Virus record (IMG/VR): IMGVR_UViG_3300010163_000016 | Location: 19,772-83,771 of that record | Origin: a virus | Taxonomy: Duplodnaviria; Caudoviricetes | DNA: 64,000 nucleotides | Reading direction: 5' to 3' (one strand) | In this document: positions 8,511 to 48,587 of the stretch, in pieces | How the letters are laid out: the number at the start of each line of letters is the position of its first letter | Position numbering within the stretch: the stretch's first letter is position 1 | Position numbers and translations under genes: made by a program | Notes under the pieces: generated by a model | The model's input: the letters and a program-made list of their open reading frames with translations, nothing else | The model's database searches: none | Told to the model about the DNA's origin: nothing

Positions 8511-8516
8511 GTAACA

Positions 8517-8545
8517 ATACTATCACGGATTTTACCACTTGTCAA
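8517..8545 (-). promoter_or_regulatory. Leftward sigma-A promoter (copy 1)
   Basis: TTGACA-17-TAGTAT. Confidence 0.75.
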
Positions 8546-8645
8546 CCCTAAATTTCGGCCTTTGAAGTTTTGGCGTCCCGCCTCTCCCGTCTCCCGGTGA
8601 GCGGTGCCCGCCTCTGTCCGCGGCCTCTTTGTTTGGTACGGTCAT

Positions 8646-8674
8646 AGGATATCACGGATTTTACCACTTGTCAA
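8646..8674 (-). promoter_or_regulatory. Leftward sigma-A promoter (copy 2)
   Basis: TTGACA-17-TATCCT; spacer identical to copy 1. Confidence 0.7.
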
Positions 8675-9310: not shown

Positions 9311-9339
9311 TTGACAAATTGCAGCATTTGTGTTATCAT
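9311..9339 (+). promoter_or_regulatory. Rightward sigma-A promoter of the recombinase gene
   Basis: TTGACA-17-TATCAT with extended TG. Confidence 0.7.
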
Positions 9340-9394
9340 ATATTTGAGAAAAAGGTTAGAGAGCAGGGACACGGCAGCCAAAGGAGGGTAGCCC

Positions 9395-18483: not shown

Positions 18484-19506
18484 ATGGGACGGAAAACAAA
18501 GCAGAACAAGCTGACGTCCCCCGAGTTGCTTGCCCAGGTCAATCCTGATAATCGGGACCTCCTGGATGATTTTCTGACCTATTTAAAGTCCACGCAGCAC
18601 AGCCCGGGGACGATCAGCGGCTATAAGAATGATCTGGAGATTTTCTTTGTGTGGTGCCTTCAGAATTGCAGGAATAAACACTTCACGGAGATCACCAAAC
18701 GGGAAATCATCTCCTATCAGAATTGGCTGCTGACGGAAAACGAGAACTCCCCCGCGCGCGTAAGGCGCATGAAGAGCGCGCTCTCCAGCCTCAGCAGCTA
18801 CGTTGAGGATGTCCTGGACGATGAGTTCAAGGGATACAAGCCGGTTGTCAAAAAAATTAAGAATCCTCCGATCCGGCCGGTTCGGGAGAAGACCGTATGG
18901 CAAGATGCTGAACTGGAAGAGCTGCTGGAGAAATTGGGTGAGGCCGGCGAGCATGAGAAAGCCTGCGTGGTCGCCCTCGCCATGTACAGCGGCCGGCGCA
19001 AGGCAGAACTCTGCCGGTTCCGTGTCTCTGATTTTGATGAGACCAACTTGGTTTGCGACGGCGCCCTGTACAAGAGTGCTCCCATCAGGACCAAGGGCCG
19101 TGCAGGCGGAAAGTATATCCCTTGCTACACATTGGCAAAAAAATTCAAGCCCTATCTGGACGCCTGGCTGAAACAGCGGGAGGGGCTGGGCATTGAGAGC
19201 GAGTGGCTGTTTCCTGACAAGAACGACCGGACACAGCAGATCCGTTTGTCCACGCTGAACAGCTGGGCGGAGATATTCAGCCGTATAACGGGCAGGCCGT
19301 TTTATTTACATAGTCTGAGGCATTTGTGGACTTCCAACATGGTGCGCGCCGGCATCCCGGACAGTGTCATTGCCCAGATCATCGGCTGGGACTCTATCGA
19401 CATGTGCCGGGTCTATACCGACATTGATACCGATGAACAAGTCTCCATGTATTTTGAAAACGGCGACATCAAGCAGAGTGTAAAGAGAGATATCTCGGAC
19501 CTATGA
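18484..19506 (+). CDS. Tyrosine recombinase with N-terminal SAM-like core-binding domain
   Basis: 'SGRRKAEL','RTKG','HSLRH','GWDS..MC..Y'. Confidence 0.85.
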   Translation: MGRKTKQNKLTSPELLAQVNPDNRDLLDDFLTYLKSTQHSPGTISGYKNDLEIFFVWCLQNCRNKHFTEITKREIISYQNWLLTENENSPARVRRMKSALSSLSSYVEDVLDDEFKGYKPVVKKIKNPPIRPVREKTVWQDAELEELLEKLGEAGEHEKACVVALAMYSGRRKAELCRFRVSDFDETNLVCDGALYKSAPIRTKGRAGGKYIPCYTLAKKFKPYLDAWLKQREGLGIESEWLFPDKNDRTQQIRLSTLNSWAEIFSRITGRPFYLHSLRHLWTSNMVRAGIPDSVIAQIIGWDSIDMCRVYTDIDTDEQVSMYFENGDIKQSVKRDISDL

Positions 19507-28702: not shown

Positions 28703-29687
28703 CTACCAGAGCTATCTGGAATCCCTTTCCCTCTATGGACGTACTGCCCGGGAACGGGATATTGCCAGGGCGAAGGAAGACTTTGCGCGGTCTGTGGTGG
28801 ACAATCCCGCCTACCAGGAAGACTGCCTGCGCAATGGCGCGCCCCAGCGGTTCATGATCACCCGCACAGACACGCCGTATAAATGCGGCATCACAGCCTT
28901 CCCTGGAGAGGAGCTGTATCCGGGTGATATCATCACAGCCTTCGACGAGCATTGGATCGTTTATCAGACGCGGGTAGCCAATCCCATCCAGGCCACGGGC
29001 GTGATCTGGCTGTGCAACCACCTGTTCCGGTGGCAGAACGGCACGCCGGAGATCGTAGAGCGGTGGGGCGTGCTGGACGCCGGCGTCTATTCTACGACAA
29101 AGACGGGCGGCTATGAGGTCAACACCCCGGATGTACAGTATAAGATCTACCTGCCGTTGGATCAGGATACCAGGCGGCTGTATGTGGACAAGCGCATTGC
29201 CACCAACATCCGTTACGACGCCAGCGGGAAGGAGATCCTGGAGGTCTATAAGCTGACGCGGGTGGACCCCACCAGCCAGGCCTATGGGAGGGGCGCGCAT
29301 CTGCTCCTGCTCCACGCCAGGAGTGACGACTATATCGCTGAACATGACAGCCTGGAAGAGCGAATCTGCGGTTATATTCCGACCAAGCAGATGGAAGTGC
29401 CCGTACCGCCGGCGGGGCCGGCAGAGTATCTGCCGTGCAGGATCTCAGGCCGCTCTGTGATCCGTCTGGGCTCCTCCAGGACCTACACAGTGGACATGGA
29501 CGGCAGGGCCGATCCCATCTGGCGCATTGACCCGCCCCTGGATGGCCTGTCTCTGGAGGGCAGCGGCGTGACCGCGAAGCTCACCGCCGGGGAAGATACG
29601 GCCCTGGTTGGCTCTGCCATTGTTCTGACGGTGACGGACGCCGCGCGCGTCTATGGGGATGCGCAGATAACTGTGGAGGTGGTCTGA
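28683..29687 (+). CDS. Neck/head-closure protein with C-terminal Ig-like segment
   Basis: GGAGG RBS; position. Confidence 0.55.
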   Translation: MDHCHLDYQSYLESLSLYGRTARERDIARAKEDFARSVVDNPAYQEDCLRNGAPQRFMITRTDTPYKCGITAFPGEELYPGDIITAFDEHWIVYQTRVANPIQATGVIWLCNHLFRWQNGTPEIVERWGVLDAGVYSTTKTGGYEVNTPDVQYKIYLPLDQDTRRLYVDKRIATNIRYDASGKEILEVYKLTRVDPTSQAYGRGAHLLLLHARSDDYIAEHDSLEERICGYIPTKQMEVPVPPAGPAEYLPCRISGRSVIRLGSSRTYTVDMDGRADPIWRIDPPLDGLSLEGSGVTAKLTAGEDTALVGSAIVLTVTDAARVYGDAQITVEVV

Positions 29688-29688
29688 C

Positions 29689-30204
29689 ATGGCCAGAAGC
29701 ACCCATATCGACCAGCTGGTGGACTACAACCAGCGCGTCGTAAGCAAGATCCTGTCTGCGCAGCCCGTGATGGCCCTGATTTCCAACGACCCGGCGCTTG
29801 ATCTGGACAGCGACGCCGCCGCACAGTGGGAGGAACATGTCCTGGACCACGCCTGGATCGATGAGACCGTCCAGGAATCCGGCGCGTTCGTAACTGTGGA
29901 CGTGGACATCCCCGAGATGAGCAGCGGCACCATCAAGGAGATGCGCGTCTATGTGGAGGTGCTGGTCAGCAAGACGTTTATGCCCCTCTCCCCTTCCCTG
30001 TTCAAGGGCTGCAGGGGGAATCGGAGGGACAACATCGTCCGCCAGATCGACCTGCTGATCAACGGCAGCTATGACTTCGGTATTGGCCGTTTGGACCTGA
30101 AAAGCATCCGTACCGTCACCACCGCCAATAAGTTTGCCGGGAAGCTGATGACCTACGAGGCGTCGGATTTTGCCAGGGATCGGAGCAGGCTGGATGCCAG
30201 ATAA
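29689..30204 (+). CDS. Tail terminator-like protein
   Basis: 'NR.D.I...ID..INGS..FGIG.L.L'; position before the tail tube. Confidence 0.5.
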   Translation: MARSTHIDQLVDYNQRVVSKILSAQPVMALISNDPALDLDSDAAAQWEEHVLDHAWIDETVQESGAFVTVDVDIPEMSSGTIKEMRVYVEVLVSKTFMPLSPSLFKGCRGNRRDNIVRQIDLLINGSYDFGIGRLDLKSIRTVTTANKFAGKLMTYEASDFARDRSRLDAR

Positions 30205-30955
30205 TCATGTGTTGATCGCCGGCTCTTCCTATTGGGTCGGCGATATTCTCTGCCGCCAGCCTACTCTTGGCGATATCTACAGGGATAAGGATGTTGGCCA
30301 TGAGATCTATCAGGCATACCTGTATGTGATCGGCATGACGGTGGATCGGTTTCTGGATGCGGAGGGGCTCAGGGATGGGTTTGCATCCCTGTCGGCGGAG
30401 GAACAAGCCCAGATCGATATTTTGGGCCTGCTGACCCACCAGTCTGCCTGGCGCTCTCTCCTTCTGGATGCCCTGGATTTCTTTGTAGATGGCAGCCCCC
30501 GCTTTGATGCGGCTACTGGCAGGATCGTCATAGAGCGGGACGGCGGCAGCCCGGTCCTGCTGACCGGGGACGCCTATGCCGCCCTGCGGAAGGAGATCAT
30601 GCAGTGCGCCTGCTTGAAGGCGGAGGACGACAAACCCAAGGGGTTCTATAACAATGCGGCCAAAAGGCTCTATGAAAAGAGCCTGGCGCTGAAGCAAAAG
30701 CGCGCTAAAGCCAATGCGAAATCTGACGCTGACTACGAGATCTGGAATGTGATCGGCGCTGTATCCGCCCGCCATCCCAGCTACAATCTGCTGAATATCT
30801 GGGGCCTGACGGTATTTCAGCTCTATGACCAGTTTTCCCGTATCCATGGCGGCATCCAGCTGGACGGCATGATCCACAAGTGGGCCGCGTGGGGCACGGC
30901 TCAATTCGATTTCTCCGCATGGTTCAAAAAGGAACCGTCGGGGTCCAACCACTGA
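30194..30955 (+). CDS. Hypothetical tail-region protein
   Basis: 'I..LT.FQ.YDQF.R' motif; position. Confidence 0.55.
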   Translation: MPDNHVLIAGSSYWVGDILCRQPTLGDIYRDKDVGHEIYQAYLYVIGMTVDRFLDAEGLRDGFASLSAEEQAQIDILGLLTHQSAWRSLLLDALDFFVDGSPRFDAATGRIVIERDGGSPVLLTGDAYAALRKEIMQCACLKAEDDKPKGFYNNAAKRLYEKSLALKQKRAKANAKSDADYEIWNVIGAVSARHPSYNLLNIWGLTVFQLYDQFSRIHGGIQLDGMIHKWAAWGTAQFDFSAWFKKEPSGSNH

Positions 30956-30975
30956 GATTGATAAGGAGATACACA

Positions 30976-31722
30976 ATGAGTGTAAATTCTGCGACTACCT
31001 TTGCCAATCGCGAGGTCTATAACCTGAAGATCTGCGATTACAACACCAAGAAGCCCGTCATTTATATTGACTGGGCCAACGGCACCGCCAACGAACTGAC
31101 CGGCGAGGCTGTATACGCTTATGGAGGGTGGCAGCACCCCAAACGCGTTACCTTCTACGGCGAGAAGGGCGGCACCCTGACCCTGGAGACCCAGATGCAG
31201 TCCTACCAGCTCTACTCCATTATCACCGGCGCCGCCATTGAGAGCACCGCTAAGTTCCTGGAGCGGGAAAAGGTCACTGCCAACGCCGAGGGCTCCGTGA
31301 CCATTAAGGGCACCCCTATAGCCGGGTCTGTCAATGTGTTCGCCGCCGAGGACGACTGCGGTACTCCCCTGGAGGGCGTAACCGTGGCCGACAAGGTGGT
31401 CTCCGCCACCGGCATCAAGGCCGACAGCGACTATATTGTGTACTACATGAAGGAGTACACCAAAGGCGTCACCAAGCTGAATATCAAGAACACCACGGTG
31501 CCCAAGTCCTGCATCATCTACGGCGACACCATCTCCAAGACCGAGGACGACCTGATCGTATCCCAGCGTCTGATCGCCTACAAGGCGACGCCCCAGCAGA
31601 ACGTGTCCTGGAGCTACTCCAACACCGGCGATCCCGCCAGCCTGTCCATCACCTTCGACCTTCTGTGCGACGAGGACGACAATCTGATGGATCTGATCAC
31701 CATCGAGGACGAGGCGGCGTAA
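30976..31722 (+). CDS. Major tail tube protein
   Basis: 'ANREV..L','GG..HPKRVTF.GEK.GTLT.ETQ','G.PA.LSITFDL'; followed by a terminator. Confidence 0.75.
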   Translation: MSVNSATTFANREVYNLKICDYNTKKPVIYIDWANGTANELTGEAVYAYGGWQHPKRVTFYGEKGGTLTLETQMQSYQLYSIITGAAIESTAKFLEREKVTANAEGSVTIKGTPIAGSVNVFAAEDDCGTPLEGVTVADKVVSATGIKADSDYIVYYMKEYTKGVTKLNIKNTTVPKSCIIYGDTISKTEDDLIVSQRLIAYKATPQQNVSWSYSNTGDPASLSITFDLLCDEDDNLMDLITIEDEAA

Positions 31723-33645: not shown

Positions 33646-35913
33646 GTGGAACATGCATTGAGCGAAGCCCTTGAATTACTATTTGGCGTAAAAGGCGGCA
33701 GCGAAATATCGCCTGGTACATCCGGCGGGCAGATCAAGGCGGATATCGACAGCATTGTCAAGCAGCTCCATACCGGCGGAAGTCTGGAGCTGACCTTTAC
33801 CGCCAAACAGGACTCTCTGTCGGCGCTGCGGGACGAGATCAAGAAGGCCGCTGGCAACATTGAAGTCACCTTCGCCAAGGGAGGCAGTATTGGCGGCGAT
33901 GGTCCCGGCGGCGCCAAGAGCGCAGATCAGGAGCTGAAAAGCATCAAGGCCCTGACGGACGGCTGGAAACAATACTATGCGCTCAGGACCAAAGCGACGA
34001 ATGCAAAGCGCAATGACACGCGGGGTGTTTATGACAAGGCCGCCTACCGCCTGCGCACTGAGCTGATAGAGCAGGAAAAGCAGTATCAGCTGACAGCCCG
34101 ACAGACCGTTGTGATAGACCGCCTAAAGGCAGAGGAACAGAGGAAACTCGGCCTGGCGGTAGAGCTCAGCAGCAAAGCCGCACAGAGGCGCAGCGCGGCA
34201 GAGAAAAAGGCCGTCTCTGCGTCTCTTGTTCAGGTCGCCGAGCTGCGCAGTCAGTATCGAAATTTCCAGAAGGAAATGCATGCGGCTTCCTTCTCCGGTC
34301 TGATCAGCCAAAACGATCTTGCCGATCTGGAAGCTGTCGCCAAACAGGCGATGACCATCAAGAAGATCGATCTGACGGGTGTGGTGAAAGAAACAGACCT
34401 TGCGAACATTAACCTGCAAAGGCTTGGCAAGGTCAACCTGGATCACACCATCAAGACCATCTCCTCCCTCAGATCGAAAGTCAAATCCCTTACGGAGGAG
34501 ACGATCGGCGGTCAGCGCGCAGCTGCCGCGGTTTCCAACAGCTACGATAAGCTGGCGAACCGTATGCAGGACTATATGACGCGCATCCAGGCCAGCTTAA
34601 AGAGCGATCCGTATACCTATCAGAAACTGCAGCACATGATAGACCAGGTACGCCTTGGACCAACAGGCGCATATCGGTCCGTCGTTCAGGCGTCCGCGGC
34701 ATTCCAGCGGCTGCAGGGTGATATCAAGATGGCTGGCTTGGAGTCTGAAACGCTGGGGCAGTCGATTACACGAATCTTCAAGCAGAAGTTCGGTTACGGC
34801 GTGATCGCGTCTGCCGCGCTGGTCGCGCGGAGGAGCCTGCAGCAGGTCTACCAAGACGTGGTGGAGATCGACGCCAAGCTGACCGAATTGCAGATCGTTT
34901 CCGGCGAGTCCGGTGAAACCATGGTCCGCTATATGGACAAGGCCGCCGCCAGCGCCAAGCGGGTTTCCGCCGCCATTACCGATATCATCGACGCCACAAC
35001 GGTTTACCGCCGTCTGGGCTTCAGCATGTCTGACAGCCTGGATTTTGCGGAACTGACGACGATGTACTCCAAGGTGGGCGGCGTTGAGATCGGCGAAGCG
35101 GAGAGCAACATCACCGCCATCATCAAGGCATTTAACCTTGAAAACGCGGATAAGCTGCGGGAAGCAATGGACAAAATTGTTAGGATCGGCAACAATTTTG
35201 CCATTAGCAGCGCGGAAATCGGGCAAGGCCTTAACAACGCCGCCTCTGCTCTGGTGGCGGCCAACAACTCCTTTGAAGAGAGCCTGGCTGTTCTGACCGC
35301 AGCGCAAGCTATCACGCAGGACGCAAGCAAGAGCAGTACGGCCATCAGGACCATTGCTGCCCGCCTTACGCAGAGCAATACGGAGCTGGAGGATCTGGGC
35401 GAGGAGCTCGACAGCGCCTACAGCACGACAGCCAAATATCGTGAAAAGCTTCTGGCAATCACTGGTGTTGACATCCTGAAAGAGAACGGACAGGATTTTA
35501 AGAGCACTTTCCAGATCCTGCGGGAGCTTGCCGGAGCCTGGGAGGGTCTGAGCGACCTGGACCAGTCATCTGTGACCTATATGGTCGCAGGCATTCGCAA
35601 CTCCAACGTGTTTAATTCCCTCATGCAGCAGTGGAAGGACGCCGAGGGCGTCGTAAAAGCTGCCGCTACCGCTTCCGGCGCTATGTCGGAGGCATATGAG
35701 GTCTATACAGATTCGATTGAAGGCAGGCTGAATGTTCTGAAGGCCAGCGCCCAGGAATTAAGCGCAGATCTGCTTGATGATGCTGTTGTCAAAGGCGCTG
35801 TCAGCGGCGTGACTGCGTTGGTCAATGCCTTTGATCGTTTGATCGATACCGTGGGCCCCCTCCCTGTTGTTTTGGGTGGAATTGGGCTGGCGGGATTGAT
35901 CCATTCGGTGGGT
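33646..35913 (+). CDS. Tape measure protein, exon 1 (unspliced frame runs on to TGA 35988)
   Basis: TP901-type TMP core 'EID..LTELQ.VSG','DIIDA...Y.RLG','ITAIIKAFN','GNNFAIS..EIGQ.L'. Confidence 0.88.
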
Positions 35914-36263
35914 GGGGCTAAATGGATTGCCCTCACAAGTGCGCCCACCTATGTCCCGGCGGTGACGCGGAACGAGTATGTAGCGTGATCGTGCTGCATA
36001 CAAGGGGACATTGGAAAAACCGGTTAAATTGGCCCTGAAAGGGCGGCGAGTTTGGACAATTCTCGTCCGGGAACTGAAAAGAACCCGCAGCGAAGCTCAG
36101 GATGAAGATGAAACTGTATTTTCATTGTGAGAACGTTCAACGACTATAATGCCGGTACGGCACCCCGACGATACAGGGCTCTGTCGTGATGGGATAGTCT
36201 GGTCAACCGTCGAGAGGCGGAAAAATTGTAAGCGGTTCGGCACCGCTGCCAACATGCCGGAAT

Positions 36264-36312
36264 AGAATTAAGGATGCCTGAACCCATCAAAGGAATCAGG
36301 CATCCTGCAATG
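36264..36312 (-). terminator. Terminator-like hairpin of the intron passenger gene
   Basis: GGATGCCTGA-loop-TCAGGCATCC, followed by a U-rich run on the minus strand. Confidence 0.6.
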
Positions 36313-36336
36313 GGGAGTCAGTTGTCATTTACAATG

Positions 36337-37848
36337 TCAGAGTAGATTTGCAACTAATGTGGGGTCTTCCTTTAGTATTTTATAGGCGGTCCACATCTCA
36401 CTAAGTTGTTTCAAATGTGAACTTGGGACTGTAACATCTTTGTAGCCCTCACCTTTAAACCGGATCGTAACATTGTCTGCTGTAATCATATCTTCTACGA
36501 TAGGTTCTAAATCAATCAGCCGAGGATCGTCATATGATTCCAGACCGTATTTTGACAAATCAACGTTAAAATGCCCATATGGCGCTATCTCCGCAATTGA
36601 TCCTCCGCTTATATCGGTTATGCGATCCCAAAAATCTACATATAGCGTATGTTGTGACTTGTCACAATCAATAACAATCTTATCAATAAACAGCCAGTCT
36701 GATTGCCGAAAGCCTAAAAAGAAGGTGAAAAGTACGTTCTGATTATCATCGACCACGATCCATGGTTCAATATTTCTGTTATATCCTATATCAATGTATT
36801 TTGTACTCAGTCCTTTCGGTACTATGTTATATTCCTTGTCTATTTTATCATACTGGATTGTGATATCTGCTTTCATGTTTTGCAGGCGTTCAACGGACAT
36901 TTGGCGGTTTAATTCCGATAATGTGGTTGAGAATTTTGTATCTAAGGCTTTCCCATTATCGTCAGTGAGCGTTAAAATAGCATCTTGTATATCTCCTGAA
37001 CGGGCTTGCTCCTCCGCTAAAGCAAATACTTCTTCAATAGACCTATTCTTGATTTGCTCAACCGCATCATTTATGAGATCAGCAGGGGTTATCATTAAAT
37101 AAATAAGAATTTCCCTATATTGCTCCTGGCTCACCATACTTTCGATTTCTTGCAGTACAAGATGTTGGAAGTTTTCCTGTCTTTCTTTTCTGTCATTGCG
37201 GAATGTATCGCTTTGGTAAGATGGATCTAAATCAGCATAGAGGGCAAAGGCCTCAAGCGTTTTCCCATCAGCAAGCAATTCATTTGCCTGGGATTGGATT
37301 TCTTCATAAATCATATCTTGCGCATTGTTCTTGCAGTCTTGTGCTTTTGTATAATTTAAAATATCTTCTTTGGTAACTTGGGAAAAATTGTCAACTGCTT
37401 TCCGATAGTCGCCGTTTTCCAAACAAATATCGCCTGATTTATAAGCTTTGCGGGATCTGGAAATGCTCAATATTTCAGTGTCAAACTCTCTCACTTCATG
37501 ATCTATTAGAAAAAAGTCTAAATAGACGAAAGCGTCTTGAATGTCTTCTACATTTAAATAAGTGTTTGCATAGTCATTGACTAGGGCAGTTGCTCGTTGT
37601 AATGCCTCACTATGCGCCATTTCTGCGAACTTAGCATTGTCTTTATTATCATTATAAATTTCAAAGGATCTTTCATATTCACCGCGGGATAGTGCATCCT
37701 GAAATCGAAGAATAGGCAAAAAGAAAAATGCGGAAACTATGAATGCGATAATGAGAAGGATACATATTGTCCCGCAAATTATCAATATCTTGTTTCTTAT
37801 TTTCCTTTTCTTTTCTGGTACATTTTCTATTTGCAAGTTCCTACTCAT
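36337..37848 (-). CDS. Membrane-anchored extracytoplasmic protein, 503 aa (intron passenger)
   Basis: AGGAGG RBS; basic N-terminus, one TM helix, TPR-like helical middle, beta-rich C-terminal domain; AT-richer than the TMP gene. Confidence 0.85.
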   Translation of the reverse strand: MSRNLQIENVPEKKRKIRNKILIICGTICILLIIAFIVSAFFFLPILRFQDALSRGEYERSFEIYNDNKDNAKFAEMAHSEALQRATALVNDYANTYLNVEDIQDAFVYLDFFLIDHEVREFDTEILSISRSRKAYKSGDICLENGDYRKAVDNFSQVTKEDILNYTKAQDCKNNAQDMIYEEIQSQANELLADGKTLEAFALYADLDPSYQSDTFRNDRKERQENFQHLVLQEIESMVSQEQYREILIYLMITPADLINDAVEQIKNRSIEEVFALAEEQARSGDIQDAILTLTDDNGKALDTKFSTTLSELNRQMSVERLQNMKADITIQYDKIDKEYNIVPKGLSTKYIDIGYNRNIEPWIVVDDNQNVLFTFFLGFRQSDWLFIDKIVIDCDKSQHTLYVDFWDRITDISGGSIAEIAPYGHFNVDLSKYGLESYDDPRLIDLEPIVEDMITADNVTIRFKGEGYKDVTVPSSHLKQLSEMWTAYKILKEDPTLVANLL

Positions 37849-37922
37849 TTGCTTTTCCTCCTATATTACGTTTGGGTTCTACTATTTCGTTGCGGTTTGG
37901 CCGCCGCAAATAAAAATGACCG

Positions 37923-40900
37923 ACACTAAAAACAGAACTCATCGGAGCAAACGTAGTATTAGGCAGCGTCCACAATATTCAAACTGCTGTGCAGTGGCTG
38001 ACACAATATGACGACGCGATTTTGAAGGTCATTCTGAGTAAAACGACACTCAGCAAAGCAGATCAAAAGGCGGCGCTGGATGCCATCGCCAGGGCCAAGG
38101 CAGACCGTCTGGTTTTGGAAGTCAGCAAAGAACAGATCTTCACAGATGCTGTCGCCGCCGACGCTGACCGCAAAAAAATTGCCGCCGGGTTAAATGCAAT
38201 CTTTGTTGAAAAGCAGGAAGCAGCCGGTATTAAGGCATGTACCCAAGCAGAGCTGGAGCACATGCTGGTCTCCAATGGCGTGAACACAGTCAAGGCGAAA
38301 GAGATCGCCGCCAGGTATGCCAACGGCGAGGCGGCAACGAGAGAGGGGCTCTCCATCAAAGGCGCGGGAGATCTGGCAAAAGCTGCCGCGGCGCGGGTTG
38401 GAAAGCTGGTAACAGCGGCCGGCAGCCTCCCGGCTCTGGCGGCCGCTATCGGTGTCGGCTTCATGGCTGCAAACGCGGTACACGAGGGGTATCAAAAGAG
38501 ACTTGACGCCTCCAAGGAGAAAAATGAAGCCCTGATTTCCGAAGTGTCCAATCTGGAGCAGGAGCTGAGGAATGTCCGGGACAGGATCGCAGAGATCAAT
38601 TCTTTGGATACTCCCACGCTTGCAGATATGGAGGAGCTGAAAAACCTCAAGGAGACGAATCGTGAGCTTCAACTGGAGCTGGATACCAAGCGCGAGCTCC
38701 AGCGTCTTGCGGCGGCTGAGGCGGAGGATAACGCCGCAGCATGGCTCAGAGGAAATCCGTTCCGCATATCGGAAACAACAACCAATCCGTATTCCGGCGA
38801 GGCCAGAGTACAGGTCAAGGAAATCAACTGGAATGAATACGGCGATATTCAGCTCCAGAAATACCACGAGCTCCAGGCACAGCTAAAGTCCGCCCGCGAA
38901 GAGGCCGCCGTCCTTGCCGCTTCTCACCCAGGGCAGGCCGCCCTTGAGGAGGCGCAGGCTAACATTGCCTCCCTGGAGGCGTCTGTCGCCGCGCAGAAAA
39001 AGAGCGTCATAGGCTTCTATACAACGATGAAGGAGAACATCGTTGACGCAATCGGGGATTCCGCCGATACGGAGTGGGGCAAAGAATTCCTGGCCATGTG
39101 GGAGAAGTTCCTGGCGGAATATGAGAAAGTCATTAACGGCCTCAGTCTGGAAAACATCGACCTCAGCGAACATACAGGCGCTATTGCCGCACTGACAAAC
39201 GCCTTGAACGGCGGCGGCAATACAGACTGGGAGGGCCTTTACAGGGGCAACTCTGCCGTGAGAGAGCTTATCGATCTGCTCGTTGAGCTTGGCATCATTG
39301 ACGGTCCCACAACGGACGGCATCCGGTCAATCGCAGAAGCCCTGGATCATATGGGTACAGCCGCCGGCAATGCTCACGATGCGCTTTTGCCAACTCTGGA
39401 AAGCTTCTCCGCGATCTATGACCGTGTTACAGCAAAGACGGATCTCCTCACCAACGCGCAGAACAAGCTGAGCAGCCAGCAGGCTCTGACCAATGAGGAA
39501 ATCGTAAAGCTTCTTGATGCGTATCCCAGCCTGATCAGCTGTTATGATGCGGAGACTGGCAAACTGAAAGTCACTGTGGCCGTCCTGCAGGATAAGATCG
39601 ACGCTGTGATCGCCGGTGAAAAGGCATCCCTGGAGGCCTCCAGGAAAACCGTTGAGGGCTACCTTGCGGAGGCGAAAGCCGCATATGCCGCCGCGGAAGC
39701 AACTGTCGCCCTGGCCCGTGCCAAAGGCGCTTCTGCGGTGAAACAGGCGACGCAGGGGAACTCCGCCTCCAGCGGGCGCGCGCTGTATCAATCGGCGCAA
39801 TCGTATTTCAGGGAATATGAGAAAGTCCTGGTGAAGGACCGGCAATTATATGCGGAATACCGGAATTTTATGGATTCTGCGGAGAAGCATCAGAACAGCG
39901 CGAACTTCCTGATGGACGACCTGAATACCTTCCGGCTGCTGCAGAGCAAGATCGAAAGCTCTATCAAAAATACCGCTACGGACCGCTTTGACCAGGCGGC
40001 TTCAAACTATGAGTCCATGCTGGATACGATCGAAGCCCAGATGGCTCTGCTCGATCGGCTTGGGAAATCCGAATTCGGCTCCTCCCTCCCTTCTTCCGCA
40101 TCCTCTGCGGCCTCTTCTGTTAAGGACGCTTTTGAGGAGCTGAAGGATCAGCTGAACGACTGGTTTAGCGACATGGAATTCAAGGTGTCCCTGCGTGTGG
40201 ACGCAGGCGACATCGAGGGAACCATTAAGCTGTACCAGCAGATGATCGACAAGGCCCAGAAAGCTCTGGACGCCGCCTATTCTGCGGGCAGAACGGTGGA
40301 TGACGACTGGGTGCAGGAGCTCATCGGCAAAATCAGCGAATATAAGAAGGCTTTAGCCGATCTGCGTCTGGAGGAGTATGACAAACTCGTCGAATACAAC
40401 GACGATTTCGACGTTTGGAACAAGGTGAGCTATCAGAAGCTGGATGTGCTGGCCGGTAAGCTGGAGAAGATCAACGATCTGTACCTCCAGGGCTACCTCT
40501 CTTATAAGGACTGGTACGACTATTACACCAGCACGGCCAAACAGATCTACGACCTCCAGCGGGACGCCCTGGATGAACTTCTGGATACCACCATGGACGC
40601 CATCAAAAGTCAGAACGACGCCCAGGTGGAGGCCCTGGAAAAGCAGTCGGACGTCTGTCAGAAGCTGATCGACCAGAAGAAAAAGCTGCTGGAGGATACC
40701 AGGGACCAGTCGGCTTATGAGCGGGAGGTCGCCAAGCGGGTCAAGGAGATCGCAAAGCTCCAGGAGCGCATTACCCAGCTGGAGCTGGATGACAGCCGGG
40801 ACGCCGCCGCCGAACGCCACAAGCTGGAGAGCGAGCTGGCCGAGAAGCAGGAGGCGCTGGCCGACTATCAGGCGGAGTACGGAACAGACGCCGCCCTGGA

Positions 40901-41777
40901 GGCGCTGGACAAACAGGGCGAAGCCTTTGATTCCGCCATGCAGGACCGCATTGACGCTGTTAAAGCTGAGGTGGAGAGCGAGACAGAGCTTCGCCGCCGC
41001 GCCATTGCTCTCATTGACCAGGACTACCAAAAGATGATGCAGAATGTCAAGGGCTACTTTGAGCGTCTTGGCATCACAATCGACAGCGAGCTGCTGGATA
41101 AGCTGACCCAGGGCCTCAATCTGGTGTCCCAGTTCGGCAGCTACACTGGCGCTGAATCAGGAATCGGTGCAAGCGGAAGCTTCTCTCCCCAGCAGATCCC
41201 TACGCTGGTAGAACAGATGAAGCGCAACTCCCAGAGCTGGCATACCGCGAAGGCCGCAGGAGACAAGACGGAGATGCAGCGTTTGAATGATGAGAATGAG
41301 CGCATCGCGCAGATGCTCAAGACCATGTTCGGCCTGGATATCTGGAAAAATGCCGCCCAGGGCAAATGGTATATCCGGCTCAACGGCAAAGAGATGGCGC
41401 TTTTTGATGTATATCACCAGGGCGGCGTGGTCTCCGGTTATCCGACCAAGAACAACAAGGAGGTCATGTCCCTTCTGGAAAAGGGTGAGGTGGTACTGGA
41501 TGACCCGAAGCAGGAGCGGTTTATCTCCATCATAGAAAATGCCGGCAAATGGGCGCAGGCGCGCATGGCCTCCGTGTTCAGCCGGGCGGTCTCCTCTCTT
41601 CCCACGCCGGTCTTGGCCGGCACGGGCACGCTGGGCAGCTTCTCCCCCACCTTCCAATTTACCTTCCACCACAGCGGCCCCATGACGGAGGATGACGCCA
41701 GGCTCTGCGGCGAGATAGCCGCCGACACCGCCCTGGACAAGCTGTGGGCGACTTTACAGAAGCGGGGCATCGCGTAA
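37923..41777 (+). CDS. Tape measure protein, exon 2
   Basis: Long Ala-rich coiled-coil ORF with no RBS of its own; open from 37920; C-terminal 'YH.GG.V' TMP motif. Confidence 0.85.
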   Translation, partial: TLKTELIGANVVLGSVHNIQTAVQWLTQYDDAILKVILSKTTLSKADQKAALDAIARAKADRLVLEVSKEQIFTDAVAADADRKKIAAGLNAIFVEKQEAAGIKACTQAELEHMLVSNGVNTVKAKEIAARYANGEAATREGLSIKGAGDLAKAAAARVGKLVTAAGSLPALAAAIGVGFMAANAVHEGYQKRLDASKEKNEALISEVSNLEQELRNVRDRIAEINSLDTPTLADMEELKNLKETNRELQLELDTKRELQRLAAAEAEDNAAAWLRGNPFRISETTTNPYSGEARVQVKEINWNEYGDIQLQKYHELQAQLKSAREEAAVLAASHPGQAALEEAQANIASLEASVAAQKKSVIGFYTTMKENIVDAIGDSADTEWGKEFLAMWEKFLAEYEKVINGLSLENIDLSEHTGAIAALTNALNGGGNTDWEGLYRGNSAVRELIDLLVELGIIDGPTTDGIRSIAEALDHMGTAAGNAHDALLPTLESFSAIYDRVTAKTDLLTNAQNKLSSQQALTNEEIVKLLDAYPSLISCYDAETGKLKVTVAVLQDKIDAVIAGEKASLEASRKTVEGYLAEAKAAYAAAEATVALARAKGASAVKQATQGNSASSGRALYQSAQSYFREYEKVLVKDRQLYAEYRNFMDSAEKHQNSANFLMDDLNTFRLLQSKIESSIKNTATDRFDQAASNYESMLDTIEAQMALLDRLGKSEFGSSLPSSASSAASSVKDAFEELKDQLNDWFSDMEFKVSLRVDAGDIEGTIKLYQQMIDKAQKALDAAYSAGRTVDDDWVQELIGKISEYKKALADLRLEEYDKLVEYNDDFDVWNKVSYQKLDVLAGKLEKINDLYLQGYLSYKDWYDYYTSTAKQIYDLQRDALDELLDTTMDAIKSQNDAQVEALEKQSDVCQKLIDQKKKLLEDTRDQSAYEREVAKRVKEIAKLQERITQLELDDSRDAAAERHKLESELAEKQEALADYQAEYGTDAALEALDKQGEAFDSAMQDRIDAVKAEVESETELRRRAIALIDQDYQKMMQNVKGYFERLGITIDSELLDKLTQGLNLVSQFGSYTGAESGIGASGSFSPQQIPTLVEQMKRNSQSWHTAKAAGDKTEMQRLNDENERIAQMLKTMFGLDIWKNAAQGKWYIRLNGKEMALFDVYHQGGVVSGYPTKNNKEVMSLLEKGEVVLDDPKQERFISIIENAGKWAQARMASVFSRAVSSLPTPVLAGTGTLGSFSPTFQFTFHHSGPMTEDDARLCGEIAADTALDKLWATLQKRGIA

Positions 41778-41846: not shown

Positions 41847-42179
41847 ATGCTAATCACAATACTTATTTCTGCCGTGGTGTCTTCTGTGGCTGCCATAATC
41901 GTCGTCAAGATGTGTTTCCGGAGCATTGACCGCTGTCATAGCAGCAGCATGGAACATGTCTGCCAAGCCGAGACGGAAGCTCCAACTGAACAGCCGCATC
42001 AGCGTATAGGTACTGTGTGCCGGAAATGTGACAATTACATTTTGGCGCTGAGAGAGCTTCGCAGGCAGTGCATCACGAAATTTGCCAAATATATTGCCGT
42101 GCTTGTATTCACAGGAACATTGGCTATAGCCTTCGATAGCTATATTCCCTGCCTGTTTTTGTTTCTGCTGCTCTTGTAA
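41847..42179 (+). CDS. Small two-TM membrane protein (overlaps the DUF2806-like gene convergently)
   Basis: GAGGTG RBS; hydrophobic termini. Confidence 0.4.
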   Translation: MLITILISAVVSSVAAIIVVKMCFRSIDRCHSSSMEHVCQAETEAPTEQPHQRIGTVCRKCDNYILALRELRRQCITKFAKYIAVLVFTGTLAIAFDSYIPCLFLFLLLL

Positions 42180-43080
42180 TAGAGATTTGTGGAGTTTCTG
42201 AGAAGGTTACACCATGTTTTTGTAAATACTCTTTCACTGTCTCCACATGCTGCAGGCAAAAGCGCCTCGGAATGAATCGTGCAATACAGTTTCCAGTGTC
42301 TGTAAGCCTTATAGAACCAATTGGGAATTTTTTGTCAGGATATGAGATAACAGACATAACCATCTGGTCACAAACAATGTGTATGTGTGGGACTTGCTCA
42401 TGGTTATATTTTAATAAATAGCCGCTGAATGAGTCAAACGTGATGAGACCCATCTGCTCCATATCTTCCAATACGGAAAAGTTGATCCCAAGCTGCTTTA
42501 GATATTCAGCGTTGAAATCCCCGGCAATAAAAAATTCTGTGCTACCAATCTGGATTTGTCTGCCATCATCAATCAAGACATCCATGCTCAATGAACACAG
42601 GTTGGAAAACTTGTCAGCATAGCTGCGCGGCATCTCCGCCAAAACGCGAATAATGCTTGGGGGTGTGCTGCCAGGCTCCTCAAATTCTTTTGCCAGTACG
42701 TTTCCCCATAGCAACTGGGTTTCCTCATCGGAGACAAAGCGTGCTGCATCCATGAACCTTGCCACAAAATCGTTGTCAACACACGAACGGTCAGAGAAGT
42801 CAGTCCCTTCCTGGGCACTGGAGTGTGCGATCTCTGCAACAGAGAGCTGATTAGTCAATTCCTTGCAATGCTTTTTAGCGTTTGCGATCAGCAGATATTT
42901 TTCATCCGGGGTATAATCTCCGTTTTCAATGGATTTGACATAAATATCGACAGCTCTTTTGCGCAGACCCCAAAATGGGAATGGCGCGCCCAATACGCTG
43001 GCGATTTTATCTACGCTTTCTCTTGCGGCTCCTTCTGTGGCGGCTTTCGCTACCTCTAGCATTGGATCTTCTATTGGCAT
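42124..43080 (-). CDS. DUF2806-like protein (antisense moron)
   Basis: 'VDNDFVARFMDAARFVSDEETQLLWGNVLAKE...PGS' pattern; AT-rich. Confidence 0.7.
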   Translation of the reverse strand: MPIEDPMLEVAKAATEGAARESVDKIASVLGAPFPFWGLRKRAVDIYVKSIENGDYTPDEKYLLIANAKKHCKELTNQLSVAEIAHSSAQEGTDFSDRSCVDNDFVARFMDAARFVSDEETQLLWGNVLAKEFEEPGSTPPSIIRVLAEMPRSYADKFSNLCSLSMDVLIDDGRQIQIGSTEFFIAGDFNAEYLKQLGINFSVLEDMEQMGLITFDSFSGYLLKYNHEQVPHIHIVCDQMVMSVISYPDKKFPIGSIRLTDTGNCIARFIPRRFCLQHVETVKEYLQKHGVTFSETPQISITRAAETKTGREYSYRRL

Positions 43081-43429: not shown

Positions 43430-43457
43430 CATGGCACCGGAAAGGAGGTCATGCCAT

Positions 43458-46400
43458 CTGATCGTAGATTTCAGCAAATGGAGCGCCGGAGCGCGTCCTT
43501 CCCTGGTCCTGCGGACGCTGTCCGGCACAGCCATTCAGACGCTGGGCTGCGCCTACGGCGTGTCCGCCGAATTCCATTACAACGAGACCTCCACCCTGAC
43601 CTTTTCCTATCCTGCCCGGCTGGATGGCAGGAGAGTCCCCGGCTACGAAAAGCTGGTGGGGATGCGCGTCGTGGACGCTGTTGGTATCGGCCAGTTTCTG
43701 CTGGTGAACCCCGGCATCAAGGAGAGCGCCTCCAAGGAGGTCAAGACTGTGACTGCATACTCCCTGGAGTATGAATTCACCTTTAAAAAGCTGACGCTGG
43801 AGCAGGGCACCTATAACTTCTGGAATCCGGCGGCACAGCAGAATACCATCCTCGGCATCATCCTGGAGAAGATGCCCTCCTGGCATGTGGGCCATGTGGA
43901 CGGCACGCTCATCGGGAAATACCGCACCTATGAGGTGAATAACGAAAACCTCTACAATTTCATCAAGGGCACGCTCCAGGACAGCTACGGCTGCATCTTT
44001 GATTTCGACACCTATCAACGGGAGATCAATGTGCGGGACGTGTCCTCCTCCGCTGCTATCCAGCCGGTGTATGTGTCCCTGCACAACCTTGCCAAGGAGA
44101 TCGAGGTCAAGGAGGATACGGAGAATATCTTTACCTGTCTGGATGTCAACGGCGCGGACGGCGTCTCCATCCGTAACGTGAATCCCACCGGCACCAACAA
44201 GATCTATGATCTGGACTACTTCATGACGGAGGAAAACTTCCCCGCCTCCCTGATCGCCAAGTGGAACAGCTGGAAACAGGGGTATAGCGGATATCAGGCG
44301 GAGTATTTCAACCGCACAGTGGAAAACGCCCTGCTCCATGTGCAGCAGGAGACGGAGAAGGCCGCCCTCACCGGGCTGGAAAACCAACTGAAAACCCTGG
44401 AGACCCAGCAAGCGGTCATAGTGGATGCGGCCTCCCAGGGCGTCGCCGGGGATCTCCCCTCCTATGTGTCTCAGATCGCGGCCAAAGAGGGCGAGATCCG
44501 CCGCAAGAAGGAGACGCTTGCCGCGATTGACGCGCAGATGCAAGAGAGCCAGGCGGCGCTCCAAGCGATCAACAGGGAGGTATCCTGGTCCGCCTACGGC
44601 ATCACGGCGGAGGAGCAGAAACTCCTGGACCGCTACATCAAAGAGGACGCGCTGTCAGACAGCTCTTTTGTCTCGCCGGAGGTAGACAGCTATACCGTCC
44701 CCGGCGAGAGCTTTCCGAACGCCAATGTGTCCGTATCCATCACCGGCGCGCAGATCACCGGGGCCACCCTCTCCGGCGGCAAGATCGTCTACACGGCCTC
44801 CGGCGGAACCGCTGTCGTGACGGTCAATGGAGAAGCAAAGCTCGCCGGCGGCAATATCCGCAGCGCCTTTGACTGTCTCAGCGGCTCCGGCGTAGCCTCC
44901 ATCTATTTGGAGAAGGGGTGTGCTACGATCTCAGGCCCCATCGCCGTGACGACGGACGCCCATCGGGACCCGGAGATCGGAGGCGCCTACATAGAGGGGA
45001 CCACCGCCTCTATCTCCAGCGCCAATGCCGACGTATATATCACCACAAAACTCACAGCTTACTCCCAGCGGGCGGTGGAATGGGATCTGTACGACTATGG
45101 CCGAGAGGTTCTAAGGCGGCTGTCCTCCCCCGCCTACACCTTTTCTGTCAGCTCCGGTAATTTCCTCGCCATGGAGGACTTTGACGCATTCCGCAAAGCC
45201 CTGAAGCTGGGAGACAAGCTGTACCTGGATCTGGGAGAGGCCTTCGGCGTCCTCTCCCCTGTCCTGATTGGCGCAAAGCTGGATTTTGAAAATAAGGACC
45301 TGTCCCTGGAATTCGGGGACAGGTTTTCTTTGCGGGACAGCGCCTTCAAGCTGGCTGACCTGCTGGACCAGTCGGTGAGCATGGGCAAGAGCTATGATTT
45401 GGGCAAATACAATTCCCAAGCGTTTGCCAACGCAGGCGGCACCTCCGGCGTTCGGGAGCTGATCGACGGGATGCGGGACCTCTCGCTGCAGGGGCTCTAC
45501 TCCACCAGCGGGCAGGCATTTACCGTAGATGGCACCGGGCTTCGTCTGCGGGAGTGGACGGACGATACCCACACCGCCTATAAGGACCAGCAGATCTGGA
45601 TGACCAGCAATAAGATCCTGTTCACCCGGGATGGCTGGAACACCGTTGACGTCGCCATCGGCGCCTTTAAGGACGCCAAAGGCAATGAGATCAGCGGGAT
45701 CAACGCGGATATCCTCGCAGGCCGTCTGCTTGCGGGAGAAAACCTGGTAATCGAAAGCGTCAAAAAGGACGGCGGCGTGGCGGTCTTTCAGGTGGACGCG
45801 GAGGGTGCAAGGCTCTATAATTCCCAGTTCGACCTGGTAAATGAATACGTGGCGGACGGGGCCGCCAAGGTGGGACAGATCAGCCTCCACCCCTCCGTTG
45901 GCATGATCGCCGCCAGCTCCGGCAAGGCGAACAGCTTTTATGCTTACGACGGCAGCGGCAATATCGTCGGCATCAAGGCCACCGACGGCACTGCCCTGCC
46001 CAGCATCAGCGATATGGGGGCCAAGACGCCCGCCGTCAACTTCTGGGCCGACAACCAGGGGAATGTGTATATCAAGGGCACAGTTTACGCCACGGACGGC
46101 ATTTTCAGCGGGAAGCTGGAGGGCGCTACCGGGAAATTCAAGGGAACGGTCCAGGCCGCCGATTTTCTTGACAGCTCCGGAAGCAGTATGCTGACCAACG
46201 GGAAGTTCAAGTCCGGGTATCTGGATCTCTACGGCCTGACCGTACGCAATCAGTCTACCGGGGATATCTCCTTCCAGGTCGGCGAGGACGGCGCTGTGTC
46301 CATTAACGGCAATGTGTCCATGGGGGCGGGCAGCACCATCAATTGGGCGGGGGTCAGCAATCAGAATATTGAGAACAATCCCGCCTACACAATGGCCAGC

Positions 46401-46832
46401 AGTGCCGTCGCTGTGGCGAACGGGGCCAGTATGAACGCCCAAAGCGCGCTGGATAATCTCGCGTTGATTGCAAACGGCCAGTACATGGGCGGCACATTTA
46501 TCAATGGAACCAATATCTATGCACCAAACCTGTACGGCGACACCATTACTTTGATGGACGGATATAGCCACAGGGTCGGCGCGATCTCTCTGCGGCAGGG
46601 CGCCACCTACGCCATGGACATCAGCAGCGATTTGAGCTTGCGGATGAGCGCGGCGCAAAACGTGTACCTGACCAATAACCAGGCATGGCTGCAAATGAAG
46701 GATAGCAATTTGACCATCGGCGGAAATTTCGTCGTGAACGCCTATAACTACAACACCATGAGGGGTGTGTTTGGGTACACGCTGCCGTCAACCGGTGTGT
46801 ACGGCCAGGTGTTCTTCCTGCTGGGAGGCTGA
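43458..46832 (+). CDS. Large minor tail protein (Tal/endopeptidase-like N-terminus, coiled coil, beta-rich C-terminus)
   Basis: 'K.VTAYSLEYE','FDFDT..R.INV','N..NP.GT..IY.L.Y'; start uncertain (CTG 43458 follows AGGAGG; ATG 43431 has no RBS). Confidence 0.75.
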   Translation: MIVDFSKWSAGARPSLVLRTLSGTAIQTLGCAYGVSAEFHYNETSTLTFSYPARLDGRRVPGYEKLVGMRVVDAVGIGQFLLVNPGIKESASKEVKTVTAYSLEYEFTFKKLTLEQGTYNFWNPAAQQNTILGIILEKMPSWHVGHVDGTLIGKYRTYEVNNENLYNFIKGTLQDSYGCIFDFDTYQREINVRDVSSSAAIQPVYVSLHNLAKEIEVKEDTENIFTCLDVNGADGVSIRNVNPTGTNKIYDLDYFMTEENFPASLIAKWNSWKQGYSGYQAEYFNRTVENALLHVQQETEKAALTGLENQLKTLETQQAVIVDAASQGVAGDLPSYVSQIAAKEGEIRRKKETLAAIDAQMQESQAALQAINREVSWSAYGITAEEQKLLDRYIKEDALSDSSFVSPEVDSYTVPGESFPNANVSVSITGAQITGATLSGGKIVYTASGGTAVVTVNGEAKLAGGNIRSAFDCLSGSGVASIYLEKGCATISGPIAVTTDAHRDPEIGGAYIEGTTASISSANADVYITTKLTAYSQRAVEWDLYDYGREVLRRLSSPAYTFSVSSGNFLAMEDFDAFRKALKLGDKLYLDLGEAFGVLSPVLIGAKLDFENKDLSLEFGDRFSLRDSAFKLADLLDQSVSMGKSYDLGKYNSQAFANAGGTSGVRELIDGMRDLSLQGLYSTSGQAFTVDGTGLRLREWTDDTHTAYKDQQIWMTSNKILFTRDGWNTVDVAIGAFKDAKGNEISGINADILAGRLLAGENLVIESVKKDGGVAVFQVDAEGARLYNSQFDLVNEYVADGAAKVGQISLHPSVGMIAASSGKANSFYAYDGSGNIVGIKATDGTALPSISDMGAKTPAVNFWADNQGNVYIKGTVYATDGIFSGKLEGATGKFKGTVQAADFLDSSGSSMLTNGKFKSGYLDLYGLTVRNQSTGDISFQVGEDGAVSINGNVSMGAGSTINWAGVSNQNIENNPAYTMASSAVAVANGASMNAQSALDNLALIANGQYMGGTFINGTNIYAPNLYGDTITLMDGYSHRVGAISLRQGATYAMDISSDLSLRMSAAQNVYLTNNQAWLQMKDSNLTIGGNFVVNAYNYNTMRGVFGYTLPSTGVYGQVFFLLGG

Positions 46833-47768: not shown

Positions 47769-48587
47769 ATGTCATTCATCGGCACATCCATGATCTTTGA
47801 TGGTGTGTCCAGCGAGGAGATGGGGCTTGCCCTGTTCGATTTTTCCTCCAAGCGGCAGAGCGGCACCCGTTTTACCGGGGACCTCTCCCCTGCCCAGGAG
47901 CGCATTGAGGGGCGGTATCGTCCTCTTTTTTATGGCGGCGCCGTCAATGGGCCCCTTATCTTTACTATGGTGCTCTCCGCCACGGAGGAACGGGCCCGCA
48001 GAAACGAGCCCTTTGACCGGTGGGATATGCAGAAGATCACCGCGTGGCTCACAGGCCATGACGGCTATAAGTGGCTCTCCATCGTGCAGGGCGATCTGGA
48101 GGAGATCCGCTACCGCTGTCTCATCAGTGAGCTGGAGGCGGTGGAGGTATCCGGCCTTACATGGGGGTTCTCCTGCAAGGTAACATGCGACTCCCCCTTC
48201 GCCTATCTGGCTCCTGTCGCTTACACGTTTGCAGTCAATGGCAGCGGCTCCGGGCAGGTGTTCAGCGAGAGCTCTTACAACGGGTTTTACTACCCAAAGC
48301 TTGTCATTTCGGGACACACAGGCGGAACGGTCTCCATCGATATCCGGAATAAGCAGGAGCGGGGGACTTTCACCTTTCAGGGGCTGCCTGCCGCCGCGGG
48401 GACGATGACCATCGACTGTGAAAACTGCGTTGTGACAGCGGAGGGGATTTCAAACCCCTATCAATATCTGCTTTTCCCCCCGGGTTTTCATTTCCCCCGC
48501 TTTGCCCGCGGGGTCAACCATATTGCGTTGGCCGGCACAGGGAATTACACCTTCACCTGTGAGTGGCCGGTCAATGTAGGAGGCTAA
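47769..48587 (+). CDS. Distal tail (Dit)-like protein
   Basis: 'F.FDG.SSEE.GL','I..WL.....YKWL','..CD.PFAY','G.N.I...G.......W'. Confidence 0.7.
   Translation: MSFIGTSMIFDGVSSEEMGLALFDFSSKRQSGTRFTGDLSPAQERIEGRYRPLFYGGAVNGPLIFTMVLSATEERARRNEPFDRWDMQKITAWLTGHDGYKWLSIVQGDLEEIRYRCLISELEAVEVSGLTWGFSCKVTCDSPFAYLAPVAYTFAVNGSGSGQVFSESSYNGFYYPKLVISGHTGGTVSIDIRNKQERGTFTFQGLPAAAGTMTIDCENCVVTAEGISNPYQYLLFPPGFHFPRFARGVNHIALAGTGNYTFTCEWPVNVGG

Follow-up and report, generated by a model that had tools for sequence, protein, structure and literature searches.

We analysed a window of 64,000 nucleotides (nt) from the metagenomic contig of an uncultured tailed gut phage (Caudoviricetes; IMG/VR record IMGVR_UViG_3300010163_000016, positions 19,772 to 83,771), in which the gene for the tape measure protein (TMP) appears to be interrupted by a group I intron that carries an unrelated gene on the opposite strand. 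Three open reading frames (ORFs) follow one another at this locus, encoding 780 amino acids (aa) on the + strand (33646..35988), 503 aa on the minus strand (36337..37848) and 1262 aa again on the + strand (37989..41777). This ORF listing agrees with the preliminary description of this DNA, in which the TMP was seen as two ORFs separated by a minus-strand gene. The interruption, 35914-37922, is 2009 nt long, with a ribozyme in its first 347 nt, a 3′ adaptor in its last 31 nt and about 1.63 kb between them. The 780-aa ORF runs 75 nt into the intron before reaching its stop codon, and the reading frame of exon 2 is open from 37920. Joining U35913 to A37923 is in frame and combines 756 and 1284 codons into a single predicted TMP of 2040 aa, the spliced RNA being expected to read ...TCGGTGGGT|ACACTAAAA... 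across the junction.

A search with the tail of exon 1 for longer relatives returned many uninterrupted TMPs of 2000-2700 aa. In the closest of these, P0008 (2138 aa), residues 1-759 align to exon 1 and exon 2 aligns further on. Across the predicted join P0008 reads ...LTKSVG ALKTSIISASAA... and the window ...LIHSVG|TLKTELIGANVV..., that is, ...LTKSVG ALKTSIIS... and ...HSVG|TLKTELIG... immediately around it. The in-frame join and the single TMP of about 2040 aa that had been predicted from the window are thus colinear with an uninterrupted homologue, and homologous TMPs do align across the junction. In addition, the TMP gene has the uninterrupted form in two metagenome contigs, L056 and L057, whereas in a third, L058, it is interrupted at the same nucleotide. 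Specifically, L056 reads unbroken ...AAATCAGTGGGT GCATTAAAGACC..., and L058 reads ...AGATCGGTGGGT, followed by a 1939-nt intron (8059-9997) and then by GCATTAAAAACC... Intron-less alleles, which the preliminary description had proposed as a line of inquiry, are therefore on record, being continuous exactly at the insertion point of L058, and these contigs represent a classic pair of empty and occupied intron sites. The two closest homologues of exon 2, P0004 and P0005, start at the same residue as exon 2, suggesting that their genes may also be interrupted there. The TMP of Enterocloster phage PMBT24 is uninterrupted and does not provide a cultured example.

Relatives of the intron were retrieved with a 27-nt DNA motif of the core, common to the window and GenBank MT837120, and by one metagenome scan. 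The motif retrieved 53 IMG/VR contigs (14-150 kb) and one contig of a metagenome-assembled genome (MAG), to whose introns we refer as cousins; protein-pattern scans of genome and viral contigs with exon 1 or exon 2 retrieved no relatives. The helix P1 with a U.G pair at U35913 can be read directly in the window, and the group I core that had been recognized behind the first ORF, with P3, P7 and a GAGA-capped P9, is likewise present, P3 and P7 showing compensatory changes. The guanosine-binding pair of P7, G36142-C36199, is a canonical G-C, and P7.1 and P7.2 are absent from the core. The loop of P9.1 together with a segment downstream (36231-36260) forms an H-type pseudoknot, the pairing of which covaries, being UCGGCA/UGCCGG in the window, UCGGUG/CGCCGA in L058, and UCUCC/GGAGA versus UUUCC/GGAAA among the cousins.

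To these pairings covariation lends comparative support. An alignment (A3; 14 sequences, 3 lineages) was built with the 5′ module of the window, that of L058 and those of 12 non-redundant cousins, and on it we scored a hand-derived structure comprising P1, P1a, P2, P3, the two extra hairpins, P4, P5, P6, P7, P8 and P9.1. For the 57 pairs scored, 99.7% of the cells were paired, and 16 pairs changed on both sides, compared with 6.7 ± 1.7 in shuffled alignments, none of 500 shuffles reaching 16; controls in which the structure was slid were 35-45% paired, with 0-3 pairs changing on both sides. Compensatory changes were found in P1, P1a, P3, P5, P6, P7, P8, P9.1 and the extra hairpin at 36032-44, and the variation in P4 was one-sided only. 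In P1, for example, one pair has changed on both sides, from G-C to C-G, in the cousin family. The Rfam group I intron model, RF00028, matches 35972-36222 across its whole length with 39.3 bits (E value 6.5e-8 for a 2.5-kb region and 1.7e-6 for the whole window), and in an Rfam search with an E-value threshold this was the sole RNA hit in the window.

At the other end of the interruption, 1.7 kb away, the elements expected of a 3′ splice site are found. The P9.0 strand GGUCA and its partner UGACC directly before G37922, and the 4-bp P10 between AGUG and the CACU of exon 2, are both present where they had been placed from the sequence (Table 1), and the + strand has a single TGACCG between 35294 and 38165. 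P10 covaries in all three lineages, the pairing being AGUG/CACU in the window, AAUGU/GCAUU in L058 and GAUUGU/ACAAUC in the cousin family. A hairpin located approximately 15-25 nt upstream of the terminal G has compensatory changes both between the window and L058 and within the cousins: L058 has the stem GUGGCU/AGCCAC with the same UUGGCC loop as the window, and the cousins have at least five different stems with a constant YGACCAY loop. Covariation of P10 and of this hairpin ties the remote 3′ end to the 5′ ribozyme, indicating that the interruption behaves as one intron. The passenger gene had been described as lying inside P9.0, which is correct in the topological sense only; its actual place is between the pseudoknotted P9.1 and the terminal hairpin, a slot position that is constant among the relatives. 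Two further pairings were considered and dropped, one between GACCA of the cousin hairpin loop and UGGUC of P9.1, where the P9.1 bases vary and the loop is constant, and one of 6-7 bp between 35958-64 and a strand of the 3′ hairpin of the window, which is missing in L058. A 12-nt inverted repeat (92% complementary), with one arm in the intron (37863-37874) and one in exon 2 (37948-37959), flanks the 3′ splice site and could be due to chance or could be a helper helix.

Table 1. Coordinates of the exons, the predicted intron RNA elements and the passenger gene in the window
Feature	Position	Strand	Remarks
TMP exon 1	33646..35913	+	756 codons, ending ...LIHSVG; Pfam PF10145 PhageMin_Tail, E 4e-24; aligns to P0008 residues 1-759
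P1	35907-13 GGUGGGU / 35943-49 GCCCACC	+	U35913.G35943 pair at the 5′ splice site
5′ ribozyme module	35914..36260	+	RF00028 match; covariation; 77.6% identity to L058 8050-8387
P1a hairpin	35915-18/35929-32	+	3 of 4 pairs change on both sides between lineages
P10 guide AGUG	35938-41	+	Complementary to CACU 37924-27
P2	35956-58/35968-70	+	5′ ribozyme module
P2.1	35976-84/35993-36001	+	5′ ribozyme module
P3	36020-24/36151-55	+	5′ ribozyme module
Two extra hairpins	36032-44 and 36045-67	+	Between J3/4 and P4
P4	36068-71/36084-87	+	5′ ribozyme module
P5	36074-75/36080-81	+	GAAA loop
P6	36090-91/36135-36 and 36096-99/36128-31	+	5′ ribozyme module
P7	36142-47/36194-99	+	5′ ribozyme module
P8	36157-62/36182-87	+	5′ ribozyme module
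P9.0 5′ strand GGUCA	36201..36205	+	Partner UGACC 37917-21
P9	36207-11/36216-20	+	GAGA-capped
P9.1	36231-35/36243-47	+	Loop pairs with 36255-60
P9.1 hairpin as terminator-like site	36231..36247	-	Stem then T-run; putative terminator
11-bp perfect hairpin, likely passenger terminator	36271..36306	-	Just past the stop codon; -25.7 kcal/mol, z -3.8
Passenger gene	36337..37848	-	503 aa; N-terminal membrane helix, TPR-like repeats, C-terminal beta domain
Ribosome-binding site AGGAGG	37857..37862	-	8 nt upstream of the passenger ATG (37848-37846)
3′-terminal hairpin	37892..37907	+	GCGGU/GCCGC stem, UUGGCC loop; compensatory changes relative to L058
P9.0 3′ strand UGACC and terminal G37922 (3′ splice site)	37917..37922	+	UGACCG also ends the L058 intron
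TMP exon 2	37923..41777	+	1284 codons, starting TLKTELIG; bases 37924-27 CACU form P10

The passenger has 235 representative homologues (best E 1.7e-90), and its AlphaFold2 model has a predicted local distance difference test score of 90.8, showing a long N-terminal helix, TPR-like helical repeats that end near residue 328, and then a C-terminal domain rich in beta structure; on these grounds it is a real gene belonging to a protein family. In 12 of the 36 aligned homologues a zinc ribbon precedes the membrane helix. Structure searches with Foldseek (PDB and BFVD) and VIA-align wide gave generic TPR matches only, together with a weak IalB-like match for the C-terminal domain. In the protein atlas the passenger falls into a 243-member cluster of Bacillota hypothetical proteins, and no relatives of it were found in IMG/VR or GenBank phages. 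The antisense gene had been taken for something other than an endonuclease, and searches of Pfam, PHROGs and PADLOC agree in that they revealed no family match, including none to an endonuclease or transposase. Specifically, no homing-endonuclease family (LAGLIDADG, GIY-YIG, HNH, His-Cys or PD-(D/E)XK) was found in the Pfam or PHROG searches, no transposase family, as would be expected of the IS605/IS200/IS607-type element of an IStron, was found in Pfam, the gene is not flanked by terminal repeats, and nothing in a repeat search marks it as a separate mobile element. The GC content of the passenger is 34-41%, versus 52-62% in the exons, suggesting that it was acquired from low-GC DNA. The A-run and hairpin at P9.1, which resemble a terminator for the minus strand, are kept in L058 and the cousin family. 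An outward-facing large domain is suggested by the positive charges that precede the membrane helix, and we would guess, with low confidence, that the protein has a role at the cell envelope, either in lysogenic conversion or in superinfection exclusion.

Comparison with the related introns revealed that what lies in this slot is exchanged. Between the window and L058 the 5′ module is 77.6% identical over 361 nt and the 3′ adaptor is shared, with nothing shared in between; the cargo of L058 consists of a sense gene for a 193-aa membrane protein and an antisense gene for a 242-aa membrane protein with a C-terminal zinc ribbon. Different passengers between the same intron ends, which had been suggested as something to look for in related phages, are therefore exemplified by L058. 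The cousin introns all follow ...ITQLG (CAGCTGGGT|), at the homologous TMP codon, and their exon 2 begins TINKSM. The complete cousin introns, 22 in number, range in length from 2003 to 3987 nt, carry 1.7-3.6 kb of cargo and show at least 18 different gene orders. Their cargo pool includes a MazF/PemK toxin (E 8e-20), a retropepsin-like aspartyl protease that also matches a PADLOC candidate family (E 1e-5), and several function-unassigned proteins encoded on both strands, and in 20 of the 22 an antisense gene for a zinc-ribbon membrane protein lies beside the 3′ end. No homing-endonuclease family was found in the cargo of the relatives by Pfam and PHROG searches. With regard to the proposal that the intron serves as a neutral landing pad, it is the "landing pad" part that is supported, by L058 and by the variety of cargo orders in the complete cousin introns. 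The nucleotide identity of the 5′ module between the window and L058 exceeds the approximately 46% aa identity of the TMPs hosting it, and this better conservation points to transfer of the intron from one TMP gene to another.

Sequences resembling promoters were observed in these relatives. In L058, a TTGACA-18-TATAAT sequence with TG upstream (10122-10093, minus strand) lies within TMP exon 2 and is aimed at the antisense zinc-ribbon gene of the intron, indicating that expression signals for the cargo can sit in the exon. In the cousins (L002-L055), consensus-like sense promoters (TTGACA/TTGACT ... TATAAT) are located directly after the P9.1 pseudoknot, e.g. at about 6540-6600 in L005; as these lie past the ribozyme, the sense cargo and possibly exon 2 could be transcribed without it. 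A similar intron is found in GenBank MT837120.1 (L001), an "unverified" phage scaffold from human faeces, which breaks off within a cousin cargo intron (5061 to the end of the record); exon 1 is present, as are the ribozyme and cargo amounting to 2.4 kb, but exon 2 is missing.

Judging from these comparisons, 35914-37922 is very probably one 2009-nt group I intron of the TMP gene with a slot for exchangeable accessory-gene cargo. Virion genes on the + strand surround the TMP gene, encoding a structural protein (30880-31722), a minor tail protein (43431-46832) and a Dit-like protein (47769-48587), and a terminator scan of 35800-38200 found no + strand terminator, those present being on the minus strand only. 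Late transcription of the + strand would read through the intron; the 5′ module would fold, with P9.0, P10 and the 3′ hairpin docking the distant splice site onto the core, and guanosine-initiated splicing would join U35913 to A37923 to yield mRNA for one TMP of 2040 aa. The passenger would be translated from a separate minus-strand transcript with its own ribosome-binding site, this transcript stopping at the hairpins before reaching the ribozyme, and its product would be a single-pass membrane protein with the TPR-like and beta domains predicted to face outward. That the 2-kb form splices efficiently is what we infer, as we do for the timing and promoter of passenger expression and for the function of the product.

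Since the cargo of this intron lineage differs from phage to phage, the intron may be viewed as an exchangeable bay for accessory genes within an essential gene. We attach a middling degree of credence to a broader form of this idea, in which an intron lineage fixed at one TMP codon would be a dedicated bay, its 5′ ribozyme and a 3′ adaptor of about 30 nt bracketing defence, toxin or envelope genes that phages exchange among themselves, encoded on either strand and equipped with expression signals of their own. The hairpin at the edge of the slot would double as an antisense terminator, splicing would make an essential gene that is never deleted into a safe harbour, and the spread of the cargo would be linked to mobility of the intron without an intron-encoded nuclease.

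Several observations weigh against the intron reading. The gathering score of RF00028 is 50 bits, so that at the default gathering cut-off Rfam gives no hit in the window, nor did it give one in L001, L058 or three small cousin loci. The expectation that a group I model would recognize the element thus held in terms of E value and failed in terms of the gathering threshold, which is a curated cut-off and not a biochemical criterion. The core of the window departs from the usual form in having two extra hairpins between P3 and P4, and these, together with the absence of P7.1 and P7.2, probably account for the low score and for the failure of Rfam to detect L058 and the cousins. The P9.0 strands are identical in the window and L058, and are thus conserved but uninformative, having no covariation. 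The record is a metagenomic contig estimated to be 66% complete, and the low-GC passenger is possibly a recent insertion. Finally, with regard to the proposal that the passenger is expressed in lysogens, no sigma-70-type promoter upstream of it passes the scan of the window, the terminator hairpins and the GC shift being the moron-like features that were seen. A promoter candidate picked by eye, ATGACC-16-CATATT (38032-38005, minus strand), agrees with 8 of 12 consensus positions, which is below the scan threshold, and is not claimed.

Three other explanations were weighed, and the sequence evidence appears to disfavour all of them. One is that the TMP is naturally split, the ribozyme being a relic or having another role, and that polypeptides of 780 aa and 1262 aa (the latter from GTG 37989) assemble non-covalently. 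Although gene callers break the TMP at this point in the window as well as in P0004 and P0005, GTG 37989 has no visible Shine-Dalgarno sequence ahead of it, joining the exons keeps the frame and gives a protein colinear with uninterrupted TMPs, and a relic would not keep the compensatory changes that hold the core, P10 and the 3′ hairpin together across lineages; we consider a split TMP distinctly unlikely. Slightly less unlikely is an intron that was once functional and has lost splicing here through the low-GC insertion, leaving a defective prophage or dead-end variant. The difference in GC content between passenger and exons does suggest recent acquisition, the record is incomplete, and the precursor might misfold because of the 1.6 kb of antisense-coding RNA that it contains. 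However, both ends of the intron are intact, with P9.0, P10 and the hairpin kept, and related introns, found on more than 20 independent contigs of 75-150 kb, accommodate 1.6-3.6 kb of cargo at the same place. Moreover, IStrons and the T4 nrdD intron, to which we return below, splice despite 3′ inserts of about 1-2 kb.

The passenger, with its membrane helix, TPR-like repeats and beta domain, has no nuclease family or fold, and unrelated genes replace it in relatives of the intron. These features make it highly improbable that it is a disguised factor for mobility or maintenance of the intron, i.e. a new nuclease or DNA-targeting protein instead of accessory cargo, even though a mobile group I intron usually codes for its own homing enzyme, homing-endonuclease genes in antisense orientation are known from introns of nuclear ribosomal DNA (rDNA) (PMC9548176), and the higher conservation of the 5′ module than of the TMP suggests an intron that moves.

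An exchangeable cargo slot in a TMP intron resembles several known systems in part. TMP genes of Bacillus cereus-group prophages carry the group I introns TMP-IVS1, IVS2 and IVS3 (Tourasse and Kolsto 2008, PMC2504315), and there too the TMP gene of a Firmicutes phage is interrupted, with intron-plus and intron-minus alleles coexisting. In the available portion of that report, however, these introns are not described as having exchangeable non-nuclease cargo or antisense genes, and they belong to a phage group different from that of the window. The IStrons CdISt1 and BcISt1 combine a group I ribozyme with an insertion sequence (IS) element, demonstrating that a large 3′ insert is compatible with splicing (Tourasse et al. 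2014, PMC4227781). As in the window, the ribozyme carries a large module other than a homing endonuclease at a fixed site near its 3′ end, and splicing renders the insertion harmless; in IStrons, the ribozyme is of class IA2 with P7.1 and P7.2, and the IS cargo with its transposase ORFs moves the whole chimera (PMC4227781). In contrast, the window intron has no transposase, no P7.1 or P7.2 and an antisense accessory cargo that varies among relatives, and it resides at one fixed gene codon. The T4 nrdD (sunY) intron is reported to carry its ORF behind the core, with P9.0 and P10 activating a 3′ splice site that lies far away. The window is similar in having the core at the 5′ end, a long insert after P9 and a 3′ splice site returned by short pairings, but in T4 the insert encodes a homing endonuclease on the sense strand. 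Phage morons are independently expressed accessory genes situated between late genes. The passenger, a low-GC accessory gene in a late operon with putative terminators of its own, is like them except that morons lie between genes, whereas it lies inside a coding sequence and would be tolerated only through RNA splicing. In nuclear rDNA, some group I introns have antisense homing endonuclease genes, and thus likewise a protein gene opposite the intron RNA strand, although this is a His-Cys homing endonuclease in eukaryotic rDNA and not a phage accessory cargo (PMC9548176).

We found no paper among open-access papers and preprints on exchangeable, non-nuclease, partly antisense cargo in phage group I introns. 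The arrangement had been thought to be undescribed, and this appears to be true of the non-nuclease exchangeable cargo only, since TMP group I introns, IStrons and antisense homing-endonuclease genes have already been published. To our knowledge, group I introns of phages are regarded as selfish elements whose cargo does not go beyond a homing nuclease of their own or, in IStrons, a transposon. In this phage and in dozens of related gut phages, a ribozyme appears to shelter ordinary accessory genes within an essential structural gene. If splicing is confirmed, this would be a new route by which phages store and exchange defence, toxin or envelope genes, and it would account for many of the TMP genes annotated as "split" in metagenomes. 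These introns escape standard RNA libraries, as Rfam sees the core of the window below threshold and the relatives not at all. Confirmed splicing would also mean that 1.6-3.6 kb of foreign sequence, even if transcribed in antisense, can be accommodated between the core of a natural group I ribozyme and its 3′ splice site, which would bear on engineered splicing and the design of circular RNAs, and it would raise the question of how an intron lacking a nuclease spreads among TMP genes that are about 46% identical.

Elsewhere in the window, two genes for tyrosine recombinases (Phage_integrase) are located at 9536-10075 and 18907-19431 (G000 29307-29846 and 38678-39202), the only hint that the phage may be temperate, with which they are compatible. 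The sole homing-endonuclease-like gene found in the record is a free-standing HNH_3-type ORF (206-aa frame; window 14893-14970, G000 34664-34741), situated 21 kb from the intron. Flanked by two tail genes of the + strand and immediately behind the TMP stop codon lies a low-GC (39-49%) minus-strand gene of 318 aa (42124-43080) with a match to DUF2806 (E 5e-18), which is a conventional intergenic moron standing beside the intronic passenger.

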